Position numbers and translations under genes: made by a program. From NCBI GenBank assembly GCA_903821335.1, contig CAIJKV010000189.1, forward strand, positions 2,612 to 66,611: DNA of 64,000 nt, read 5' to 3'. This DNA comes from an uncultured beta proteobacterium (GTDB lineage: Bacteria; Pseudomonadota; Gammaproteobacteria; Burkholderiales; Burkholderiaceae_B). A model generated the notes under the pieces. That model had not been told where the DNA came from and did not search any database. It saw only the letters and a program-made list of their open reading frames with translations. This document shows positions 60,596-64,000 of this stretch, piece by piece (position 1 is the first letter of the stretch; each line of letters begins with the position of its first letter).

Positions 60596-60637
60596 CTTAA
60601 TGTCAATAACAAAAACAGATTGGCTCAGGAGAAGAAA

Positions 60638-61633
60638 TTGAAAAAGCACAGGTTTTTATTCCGTGTTCTGGTCTTGGCGACAGCGTTGACCGGTGCATTG
60701 TCTCCGCTGACGCACGTCCGGGCGCAGGCGTTTCCGACTCGACCCGTCACGGTCATCGTGCCTTATCCGGCAGCCGGGGCGGCAGATATTTTTGGTCGCT
60801 CGATCGCGCAAGCTATGGAACAAACGCTCAAGCAGCCCGTGGTGGTTGAAAACAAACCGGGCGCAGGTGGAAACCTGGGGATGACCGTTGTTGCCCGCAG
60901 CAAACCCGATGGTTACACGATCGGGTTGGGCACGATCGGCACGCAGACGATCAACCAGTTTATTTATCCGGAGATGCTGTTTGATCCGGAAAAGGACTTG
61001 GTGCCCATCGCATTGGTGTCGACCACTCCCAATGTGCTGGTGGTGTCAGCCACTTCTGCCTGGAAAACGCTGCCGGATGTGATTGCTGCTGCCCGGGCGG
61101 CCAAAGATAAAAAACTGACCTATGGCACGCCTGGCGTCGGCTCTTCACCTCATCTGACAGGTGCCTACTTTGAAGCCATGGCGGGAGTCGAGTTACTGCA
61201 TGTGCCGTTCAAGGGTATATCGGCGTCGATGCCGGCGCTGATTGGTGGGCAGATCGATCTGTTGTTTGACAATTTGCCTGGGTCGATTAACCAGATCAAG
61301 GATGGTTCGCGTGTGCGGGGCATTGCGGTCACCTCGAGCCATCGCACACCGTTGGCACCCGACTTGCCGACGTTCGCTGAATCGGGTGTACCTGGGTTTG
61401 ACGTGACGGCCTGGTTTGCAATCTATGCACCACGCGGCACCCCGCAACCTGTCATGGACAAACTGATCGAGGCGGCGCGCGTGGGGTTGGCTTCTGAAAA
61501 AGTGATTCAGGCGTACGCCAAACTGGCAGCGCTGCCAGGCACGCTGTTCGGACCCGATCTGGGTGCGTTTGAACAGTCTGAACGTGTCAAGTGGGGCAAA
61601 CTTATCAAGGAACGGGGGATCAAGGCAGAATGA
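60638..61633 (+). CDS. Bug/TctC tripartite tricarboxylate transporter substrate-binding protein
   Basis: FPTRPVTVIVPYPAAG, VENKPGAGG, DGYTI, GVGSSPHL, HVPFKG, WFAIYAPRGTP. TTG start after AGGAG. Confidence 0.93.
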   Translation: MKKHRFLFRVLVLATALTGALSPLTHVRAQAFPTRPVTVIVPYPAAGAADIFGRSIAQAMEQTLKQPVVVENKPGAGGNLGMTVVARSKPDGYTIGLGTIGTQTINQFIYPEMLFDPEKDLVPIALVSTTPNVLVVSATSAWKTLPDVIAAARAAKDKKLTYGTPGVGSSPHLTGAYFEAMAGVELLHVPFKGISASMPALIGGQIDLLFDNLPGSINQIKDGSRVRGIAVTSSHRTPLAPDLPTFAESGVPGFDVTAWFAIYAPRGTPQPVMDKLIEAARVGLASEKVIQAYAKLAALPGTLFGPDLGAFEQSERVKWGKLIKERGIKAE

Positions 61634-62352
61634 AAGGCGCAACAGCATTGGTGACGGGTGGGAGTCGTGGGATCGGTCGTGCGGTCGTGGAGCGGTTGCT
61701 CACGGATGGTTACGAAGTGATCAATTTCAGTCGGTCGGCGCCTGCGCAAATGTTGCCGGGTGAAATTTTTGAATCCGTGGATCTGGGCGATGCCAGGCGC
61801 ACGCGCGAGGCGATTGGAGACTGGACGGCAAAAAAAGAGATTTTGCATCTGGTGAATAACGCCGGGATGATTCATGCGGCCAAGATCGAGGACATCACGC
61901 TTGAGCAGGTTGACGATATGGTGTCGCTCAATATGGTGGCGCCCTTGTTGTTGACACAAGGCGTGATCGGTGCGATGCGTGCGCGCAAGTTCGGACGGAT
62001 CGTGAACATTGGCAGTCGTGCGATGCTGGGCAAGTCGGGGCGCACGGTTTATGGTGGGACCAAGGCCGGGATTGTCGGGATGACGCGTACTTGGGCGCTC
62101 GAACTGGCCACGCAGGGGATTACGGTGAATGCCGTGGCGCCCGGGCCGATTGCGACGGAGTTATTTAATGCTTCCAATCCTCCGGACGCACCGCAGACCA
62201 TTAAGATTTATGAGTCGATTCCTGTTGGTCGGGTCGGGACGCCAGAGGAAGTGGCGCATGCAGTGTGCATGTTTATGGATGAGCGGGCTGGGTTTATTAC
62301 CGGTCAACTGCTTTATGTTTGCGGGGGGATGTCTGTGGGGTTGGTGGGGTAG
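61630..62352 (+). CDS. Short-chain dehydrogenase/reductase
   Basis: TGGSRGIG, NNAG, YGGTK, NAVAPGPI; ATGA overlap with the bug gene. Confidence 0.92.
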   Translation: MKGATALVTGGSRGIGRAVVERLLTDGYEVINFSRSAPAQMLPGEIFESVDLGDARRTREAIGDWTAKKEILHLVNNAGMIHAAKIEDITLEQVDDMVSLNMVAPLLLTQGVIGAMRARKFGRIVNIGSRAMLGKSGRTVYGGTKAGIVGMTRTWALELATQGITVNAVAPGPIATELFNASNPPDAPQTIKIYESIPVGRVGTPEEVAHAVCMFMDERAGFITGQLLYVCGGMSVGLVG

Positions 62353-62760: not shown

Positions 62761-64000
62761 TCATAGCACCACATCATCAAACTGGATTCGGTTACGGCCG
62801 GCCTCTTTAGCCTGATACATCGCGTCGTCTGCCCGCTTCAGTAACTCAGCCTTCCTCGCGGCATCCCCGGAGAATATGACTACACCGATGCTGGCCGTGC
62901 AATGATGCTCGACTTTCAACGCAGCTTCTTCATTGTGCTGCATTTCAAGAACGTACGGTTCGTCCAAGGTCAGGCGAATCTTTTCCGCAATTTCCAGGGC
63001 TCGCTGCCTGGCGATTGCCAGATCCTGCTCGAGTTCGGAAATCACTACAACGAACTCGTCGCCGCCGGTGCGGGCCACTGTGTCGACCTCCCGCACACTG
63101 GACTTCAAACGCTGAGCCACTTCGACCAATAGCACATCGCCAGCATCGTGCCCCCATGCATCGTTGAGGGGTTTGAAATTATCGAGATCGATAAAGAGCA
63201 CGGCGCCATGGCAACGGCTGCGTCGGTTCTCGACGACGACTTGGTTCAGTCGATCATCCAATAGGCGCCGGTTGGGCAATTTCGTCAACGGATCATAAAA
63301 GGCCAACTGCTCGATCTGCTCTTGGAGACGCTTGCGCTCCGTGATGTCGCGTGAAGAGGCGTAGACATGTTTCTTGCCGTTTATTAGGATTCCTTTGGCG
63401 TTGATTTCAACATCAATTAATGTGCCGTCTTTACGGCGATGAATCGTCTCGAATATTTTGGACGTGCCAATCAAGTCCTTAAGCATTCGGGAAATTTGAC
63501 TAATCGATAAATTGGCATCCCAATCCATTATCTTGCGCCCGAGAATTTCTTCCTGGGTATAGCCCAGCATCCTCGCAAATGAGCGACTGCATTGCATCAA
63601 CCGGCCCGTCTCGTCCAGGATCTGGATCCCGTCGCTGGCGGAATCCAGCAACTCTGACGCCTTGCTCGTTATTCTTTTGTCCTGAAAGTCTATCTGTCCT
63701 TTGGCCGCAACTAATTCATCTGCTCGCTTGGCTTTCTCTATACTCTGGAATGCCAGTTCTATTTTGGCGAGAACCAACTCGGCTGCTCGCGTGGCTTTCT
63801 CTTCACTCTGGAAGGCCAGTTCTACCTTGGCAGCAACCAATTCGGCTGCTCGCTTGGCTTTCTCCTCGCGTTGGAAGGCCAGTTCTATATTAGCGATCAC
63901 CAGTTCAGCCGCCCGCTTGGCCTTATCTCCATTCTGGAAGGTCAGTTCTTTGTTGGCAATGTTGGCGAGGATCAACTCTGCTGCGAGTTTCGAGGACTGC
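62761..64000 (-). CDS. PAS-GGDEF diguanylate cyclase with N-terminal 21-aa repeats (5' end beyond window)
   Basis: The frame is open to the window edge; PAS (LGYTQEEILG, HRRKDG), YDPLTKLPNRR, FIDLDNFKPLND, REVD I-site plus GGDEF, ADDAMYQAK. Confidence 0.93.
   Translation of the reverse strand, partial: QSSKLAAELILANIANKELTFQNGDKAKRAAELVIANIELAFQREEKAKRAAELVAAKVELAFQSEEKATRAAELVLAKIELAFQSIEKAKRADELVAAKGQIDFQDKRITSKASELLDSASDGIQILDETGRLMQCSRSFARMLGYTQEEILGRKIMDWDANLSISQISRMLKDLIGTSKIFETIHRRKDGTLIDVEINAKGILINGKKHVYASSRDITERKRLQEQIEQLAFYDPLTKLPNRRLLDDRLNQVVVENRRSRCHGAVLFIDLDNFKPLNDAWGHDAGDVLLVEVAQRLKSSVREVDTVARTGGDEFVVVISELEQDLAIARQRALEIAEKIRLTLDEPYVLEMQHNEEAALKVEHHCTASIGVVIFSGDAARKAELLKRADDAMYQAKEAGRNRIQFDDVVL
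63661..63984 (-). repeat. Tandem 63-bp (21-aa) coding repeat, about 5 units, consensus AAELVxAxxELAFQxEEKAKR
   Basis: Read directly from the translation. Confidence 0.93.

Follow-up and report, generated by a model that had tools for sequence, protein, structure and literature searches.

The window, a stretch of 64,000 nucleotides from an uncultured beta proteobacterium, carries the 3′ part of a diguanylate cyclase gene in which five tandem units of a 21-residue repeat stand between two PAS domains. We think it likely that these units are an amplified form of an S-helix-like element and serve, in dimeric signalling proteins, as a coiled-coil connector in which the helical phase is kept. The observations behind this proposal are the anatomy of the repeat, the heptad statistics of the family to which it belongs, a series of orthologues that differ in array length, and a continuous helix in the predicted structure.

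The open reading frame enters from the end of the contig, 72 nt beyond the end of the window, and runs on the minus strand to a stop at 62761, encoding a fragment of 436 residues (Table 1). The contig end cuts inside the first PAS domain (PAS1) of the gene. The 24 residues preceding the array, counted to the contig end, comprise the C-terminal strand and the DIT motif (...IIHDIT...) of another PAS domain, and the array is therefore an inter-PAS connector; an earlier note on this DNA had taken it for an N-terminal stalk, which has to be given up. The same note had looked to the upstream contig for the full N-terminus. The contig did supply the additional 72 nt that reveal the PAS1 end, but it stops there, and the complete N-terminus was obtained from orthologues. 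The assembly from which the window comes does not contain the N-terminal half of this gene elsewhere, the best match to the first 463 residues of an orthologue being a 34%-identical paralogue. An intact GG(D/E)EF motif together with RxxD, and the resemblance of the PAS2-GGDEF part of the structural model to solved cyclases, identify the product as a GGDEF diguanylate cyclase. At the other end of the array, the N-terminal cap helix of PAS2 continues the repeat with an AAEL-type sequence, as if a further unit began there.

Table 1 Features of the diguanylate cyclase gene, in window coordinates
Feature	Position	Strand	Remarks
Cyclase gene, 3′ part (PAS1 end, array, PAS2, GGDEF)	62761..64000	-	stop codon 62761-62763
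Helical head, end (QSSKL)	63985..64000	-	last residues of the 19-residue head from the PAS1 DIT motif to unit 1
Unit 1, 24 aa	63913..63984	-	3-aa insertion ANI
Unit 2, 21 aa	63850..63912	-	near family consensus
Unit 3, 21 aa	63787..63849	-	Asn8 replaced by Lys
Unit 4, 21 aa	63724..63786	-	Asn8 replaced by Lys
Unit 5, degenerate	63661..63723	-	contains a Gly
PAS2 domain	63322..63654	-	PAS_9 match 8e-14
GGDEF catalytic domain	62788..63303	-	PF00990 1.7e-45; TIGR00254 2.6e-46
GGDEF motif	63052-63066	-	intact, from the translated sequence
RxxD I-site (REVD)	63082-63093	-	intact; five residues upstream of GGDEF

Two genes on the opposite strand (60620-62352, plus strand) converge on the 3′ end of the cyclase gene. 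Named from their translations alone, they encode a Bug/TctC-type periplasmic binding protein and a short-chain dehydrogenase, and nothing ties either of them to the cyclase.

The five units lie at 63661-63984, as read from the translation and with Tandem Repeats Finder, which at 63709-63957 detected 4.0 copies of a repeat with a period of 63 nt (78% matches, score 279). Units 2 to 5 have 21 residues each, while unit 1 has 24 and fits the family consensus after removal of three residues (ANI); at the DNA level this insertion is a 9-nt direct repeat, GCCAACATT/GCCAACAAA. The consensus residues A1 E3 L4 A7 N8 E10 L11 F13 Q14 E17 K18 R21 are all present in unit 2 (12/12), and 11 of the 12 are found in unit 1, which has D at position 17. 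Asn8 is gone from units 3 to 5, and unit 5, which matches the other units at 6-9 of 21 residues, is limited to A1, E3, L4, A7, F13 and Q14. The loss of Asn8 and the degenerate, glycine-bearing last unit may indicate relaxed constraint, and we counted them against the connector. The description given in the earlier note, of about five tandem 21-residue units before PAS-GGDEF, the first with a 3-aa ANI insertion and the last degenerate, followed by an enzyme with intact GGDEF and RxxD I-site, is thus accurate.

The repeat belongs to a large family with the unit consensus AAELvIANkELaFQNxEKeKR. Scoring of 8,000 candidate proteins identified more than 4,229 members, and a phmmer search with the array as query gave 1,236 clusters (50% identity) at E ≤ 0.001. 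The named sources are in their majority Bacteroidota, and also include Clostridia, Spirochaetota, Holophagaceae, Ignavibacteria, Gamma- and Betaproteobacteria. The distribution is patchy, with 3 of 400 other genomes sampled from the window's phylum and 11 of 300 other sampled Bacteroidota carrying the repeat. Almost all of the 69 members that we scanned for domains bear signalling output domains, and most are histidine kinases: HATPase_c was present in 50, HisKA in 45, PAS in 37, a receiver domain in 14, HD-GYP in 5 and GGDEF in 4, with CHASE3, GAF, EAL, SpoIIE or cyclase domains in a few. Arrays have from 3 up to about 25 units, and across the family the terminal units are more degenerate than the internal ones. 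The window array has the 21-residue spacing, the conserved residues and, beside PAS and GGDEF domains, the signalling-protein context of the family, of which it is a short, partly degenerate and peripheral member. The survey of domain contexts and copy number, which the earlier note had suggested, also bears out its statement that histidine kinases and HD-GYP proteins that are unrelated and come from distant phyla have similar repeats.

Neither Pfam nor NCBIfam gave a credible match to the repeat unit. In the PDB the window array was without a match at E ≤ 10, and a canonical array from another family member (L063) gave a single chance-level match (E 0.22) to an unrelated enzyme. Text searches of the literature with the motif and with descriptive phrases found no paper describing the repeat. 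In precomputed annotation many members carry the label PF24081 (PH_SLA1), which we judged spurious and which looks like a systematic false positive: the matches are partial and reiterated over the helical repeats, span profile positions 12-78 of 91 at most and mostly less, and have scores that lie close to the 27-bit cut-off or under it. PH_SLA1 does not match the window array. The claim that the repeat is unassigned therefore holds as far as curated families, solved structures and the papers found are concerned, but it has to be qualified, since the core of the unit resembles the S-helix (see below).

Some individual loci deserve description. A 295-aa Bacteroidota protein (L107, 934-1821, plus strand) has about ten units followed by a DHp-like helix with a His and without an ATPase domain; it could be a phosphotransfer or kinase-modulating protein built on the array. 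At another locus (L106, 441-1633, minus strand) an array kinase is split just past the His box into overlapping frames of 208 and 189 aa, which is either a frameshifted gene or a sequencing error. A stop-to-stop frame in L088 (start 2479) contains two arrays around a second copy of its own N-terminal leader (...MNQTLSDLQLKYNKLH...), which points either to an extensive duplication within the gene or to faulty assembly at a contig end. In a betaproteobacterial CHASE hybrid kinase (L052, 139-3519, plus strand) four units are located directly between a TM helix and DHp; one unit is four residues shorter, and the last, partial unit is still in the commonest phase (26 residues) to the His. Finally, a 57%-identical paralogue of the window cyclase, P0314, shares the layout TM, Cache-like, TM, PAS, PAS, GGDEF. 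Its inter-PAS linker (region 575-605) has only 26 residues and differs in phase mod 7, and an array of about six units is found at the extreme N-terminus, before TM1 (residues 1-150), with two units shortened by exactly one heptad (seven residues).

In 78 of 142 complete representative proteins the array begins within the first 45 residues, and in 40 of those 78 it leads directly into the kinase core. Kinases of about 500 aa from Mucilaginibacter and Pedobacter isolates consist of the array, an S-helix (in two of three cases) and DHp-CA, and nothing more. Relay from a sensor is impossible in about half of the sampled members, because they have no domain upstream of the array, and we counted this against a connector, together with the short linker, different phase and pre-TM1 array of P0314. 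The same facts speak for an array that is itself an input or regulatory module, either a marginally stable zipper whose pairing would respond to temperature or ionic strength, or a docking surface, for a partner or for other proteins with arrays, that would set the oligomeric state and activity of the attached enzyme. Further in its favour, the units agree at 14.4 of 21 residues across proteins and phyla (15.9 within a protein), including the polar or outward-facing positions E3/E10/E17, I6 and F13, which is more than a generic coiled coil would need, and poly-HAMP arrays provide the nearest precedent for repeated helical modules without upstream input (PMC13446029). We nevertheless regard such a role as unlikely. 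No conserved partner gene was found beside the array genes at 80 loci, where only response regulators recur (6 loci) and where much of the clustering of open reading frames comes from alternative frames of the repeat gene itself; nothing observed ties the family to a stimulus; the window's genome has one array protein, the only place where the repeat occurs in its assembly, and therefore no pairing between different array proteins can occur there; and the window array, with a sensor domain on either side, needs no role beyond that of a relay. A free-standing input, whether a metastable zipper that senses a physical variable (temperature or ionic strength, for instance) or a surface that associates with itself and so brings its carriers into clusters, would explain why about half of the family has nothing else before the catalytic core and why outward-facing residues are conserved across phyla, but we consider it doubtful. 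The arrays without sensors, the differently placed array of P0314 and the high identity between proteins do support the mobile, expandable module that the earlier note had envisaged.

The evidence for a phase-keeping connector comes in the first place from the spacing of the units. Adjacent units are exactly 21 residues apart in 5,111 of 5,201 cases (98%). Of the 90 other spacings, 67 are divisible by 7, where chance alone would make this 1/7. Together with the 21-residue steps between orthologues described below, this substantiates the earlier suggestion that a 21-residue period keeps the coiled-coil register. Over 5,707 units, Pro amounts to 0.02% and Gly to 1.2% of residues. The distance from the last unit to the phospho-accepting His falls in a single class mod 7 in 90 of 154 kinases, a figure that, these kinases being mutually related, is suggestive of a kept register. 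On the input side, the distance from the PAS DIT motif to the first unit lies in three adjacent classes in 67 of 72 cases, with 1 mod 7 the commonest.

A structure was predicted for the window fragment with AF2 and a 29-sequence alignment, a single-sequence model (pLDDT 38) having been set aside. The monomer model has a mean pLDDT of 82 and displays one helix of 116 residues (residues 4-119) that comprises units 1 to 4 and the insertion and measures about 17 nm at 0.15 nm per residue. The pLDDT is only 59-70 in the helix, a modest confidence that we counted against the proposal, and above 90 in PAS2 and GGDEF, and a low-confidence break of the helix falls in unit 5. The best structural matches of the model are PAS-GGDEF enzymes.

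Unit positions 1, 3, 4, 7, 8, 10, 11, 14, 17, 18 and 21 are conserved at ≥90% in the family, and positions 5, 9, 12 and 16 are the least conserved. The probable heptad register, as deduced from these sequences, places L4/L11/K18 at a and A7/Q14/R21 at d. With this assignment the conserved positions are precisely those at a, d, e and g, while the variable ones fall at b and f. It is favoured by the conservation pattern and by the alignment with the S-helix, and on the same grounds we set aside a register with Asn8 at a, which we had favoured first. Two features count against a connector of this type: the core would have only two Leu per unit, in addition to Ala, Gln, Lys and Arg, and the conserved Ile6 and Phe13 point outward from a two-stranded coil in either register. 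The hydrophobicity spectrum of the consensus has only 4% of its power at 3.5 residues, because the hydrophobic residues cluster in the first 13 positions, and this fits a segmented rather than a uniform coil. On visual inspection, the methylation motif of chemoreceptors (small-small-x-x-E/Q-E/Q-x-x-small-small) could not be matched to the unit.

Orthologues of the window cyclase were obtained from a public MAG by a reference-genome scan and from metagenome proteins by a protein search, and none was found among 40 sampled relatives. The MAG, labelled uncultured beta proteobacterium, encodes an 877-aa orthologue (L022) with the layout TM, Cache-like (weak dCache_1 match), TM, PAS, array, PAS, GGDEF. 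This closest orthologue shares 73% identity with the window fragment, and the sole gap in the alignment is a clean 21 aa at unit 5. The protein search added three further orthologues. The number of units is 3 in P0275, 4 in P0267/L022, 4 in P0277 (counted by eye from the sequence, the last unit being degenerate) and 5 in the window, and apart from this the four closely related orthologues are collinear. The distance between the PAS1 DIT motif and the PAS2 SDGI motif, measured in P0275, P0267/L022 and the window protein, is 93, 114 and 135 residues with 3, 4 and 5 units, respectively; it changes in exact steps of 21 and always equals 2 mod 7. Copy-number variation among orthologues thus consists of whole units. 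A tree of five orthologues, built from the catalytic halves, is a polytomy, so gains of units cannot be placed in order relative to losses.

All orthologues retain the array, and the 24-aa first unit with its 3-aa insertion is kept in all four. Counted from the PAS1 DIT motif, the window's unit 1 begins at +19, which is 5 mod 7, a rare class, and unit 2, after the insertion, begins at +43, which is 1 mod 7, the commonest class. The insertion thus puts units 2 to 5 into the commonest family phase, and because it is kept in every orthologue, we read it as a putative phase correction. Unit 1 is clearly orthologous between species, with 52 of 63 nt shared, and internal units are slightly more alike within species (53-55 nt) than between species (46-51 nt). 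For units 2 to 4 and their orthologous counterparts, synonymous codon differences exceed non-synonymous ones in most comparisons, the exceptions being unit 1 and the degenerate unit 5. The synonymous excess and the orthology of unit 1 indicate that the array is old and constrained rather than the product of a recent slip. The insertion, which all four orthologues keep, is not a recent slip either.

These data also bear on the idea that the array is a tolerated, largely neutral in-frame minisatellite, with copies decaying near PAS2 and a copy number devoid of functional meaning. The presence of 3, 4, 4 and 5 units in otherwise collinear orthologues would be expected in this case, as would the degenerate last unit in the window and in P0277, the loss of Asn8 from window units 3 to 5, and the decay of terminal units family-wide. 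Yet the unit sequence is strongly constrained across phyla, the codon differences in units 2 to 4 (not in units 1 and 5) are mostly synonymous, and there is no orthologue that lacks the array or the phase-correcting insertion, which makes neutrality improbable. That the 63-nt repeats are a contingency locus, switching protein length within a population by fast slippage, is very improbable: they are tandem and in frame and their number differs between species, but the units in the window share only 43-53 of 63 nt pairwise, with many synonymous differences, and are too diverged for frequent slippage, and unit 1 can still be paired with its orthologue in other species.

For the connector we propose the following mechanism. 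The array would form one long helix that begins where the last strand of PAS1 ends and reaches as far as the cap helix at the N-terminus of PAS2, and in the dimer the two array helices would pair in parallel, the AF2 prediction being that of a monomer. A conformational change arising in the membrane sensor and PAS1, either a rotation or a shift of register, could then travel along the paired helices and reach PAS2 and the cyclase. Each unit would add three heptads, corresponding to about 3 nm and six helical turns. Since every unit keeps the phase, gain or loss of a unit should alter the length of the connector and not its angular geometry, which qualifies the earlier suggestion that repeat number could set dimer geometry. 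This phase neutrality would explain why orthologues tolerate 3, 4 or 5 units. Within a unit, two hydrophobic heptads are followed by a heptad with a polar core (Lys, Arg), from which we infer a marginally stable coil that could be switched. The length of the array may in turn influence c-di-GMP output.

Of all parts of bacterial sensor proteins, the coiled-coil linkers are understood least, and the family described here offers a natural length series, in which one three-heptad unit occurs in 3 to more than 20 copies before kinases, cyclases, phosphodiesterases and phosphatases. With it, one can test how far and by what motion signals travel along a coiled coil, and whether a coiled coil alone can serve as input. 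The family has thousands of members, no curated model and a PH-like mislabel in some databases, and its definition would improve annotation. The main value of the window copy lies in the series of orthologues with 3, 4 and 5 units and in the conserved insertion that appears to correct the phase.

Among known systems, the S-helix is one of the closest to the array. Kinases, cyclases and PAS proteins contain both kinds of helical coiled-coil element, which lie between their sensory and output domains (PMC1592074) and share the conservation of polar residues at the interface. When the core of the unit, KRAAELxIANKEL, is aligned with that of the S-helix, ERTAxLxxxNxEL, the two are in register. Many family members have a canonical ERT S-helix immediately behind the array, and a profile of those that follow the array in 30 family kinases (ERTAQLExxNKEL) aligned with the unit at 47% identity over 38 columns; the hhalign probability is only 35%, which counts against the link. 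In the profile alignment R21 of the unit coincides with the Arg of the S-helix. This Arg was assigned to position d by Anantharaman, Balaji and Aravind (2006, PMC1592074), the ERT signature being c, d and e of the central heptad. Because this is also the position of R21, the alignment supports the register proposed above. The S-helix forms a parallel dimeric coiled coil between input and output domains; for the array, the heptad statistics of the family are consistent with a coiled coil, and the AF2 model, that of a monomer, has a continuous helix. However, the S-helix, for which ERT is the defining signature, occurs singly and comprises about 40 residues in five heptads (PMC1592074), whereas the array unit has 21 residues, occurs in tandem, has EKR-A in place of ERT and is often the sole N-terminal region. 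We therefore did not assign the unit to the S-helix: of ERT only the Arg is kept (93% in the family), with Thr replaced by Ala, and tandem units, five here and up to about 25 elsewhere, take the place of the single module.

The poly-HAMP arrays of soluble kinases and chemoreceptors are concatenated helical modules, often without upstream input (PMC13446029; they are also treated by Dunin-Horkawicz and Lupas 2010, as cited therein). Like the 21-residue array, they are long chains of one helical module along a coiled-coil axis. A HAMP unit has about 50 residues, with two helices and a connector that assemble into a four-helix bundle, whereas the array unit is a single helix of 21 residues, and none of our scans gave a HAMP match, so an identity of the two was rejected.

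The linkers of PAS-, LOV- and phytochrome-coupled kinases and cyclases (PadC 5llw, 8c05, DosP) resemble the array in that they connect a sensor to GGDEF or DHp by a parallel coiled coil whose register controls activity, and the PAS2-GGDEF part of our model best matches structures of the phytochrome-activated PadC or LOV-activated cyclase type. These linkers are short, with one to a few heptads of unique sequence and no repeats, whereas the window array has 14-17 heptads made of one conserved unit, whose number varies between orthologues.
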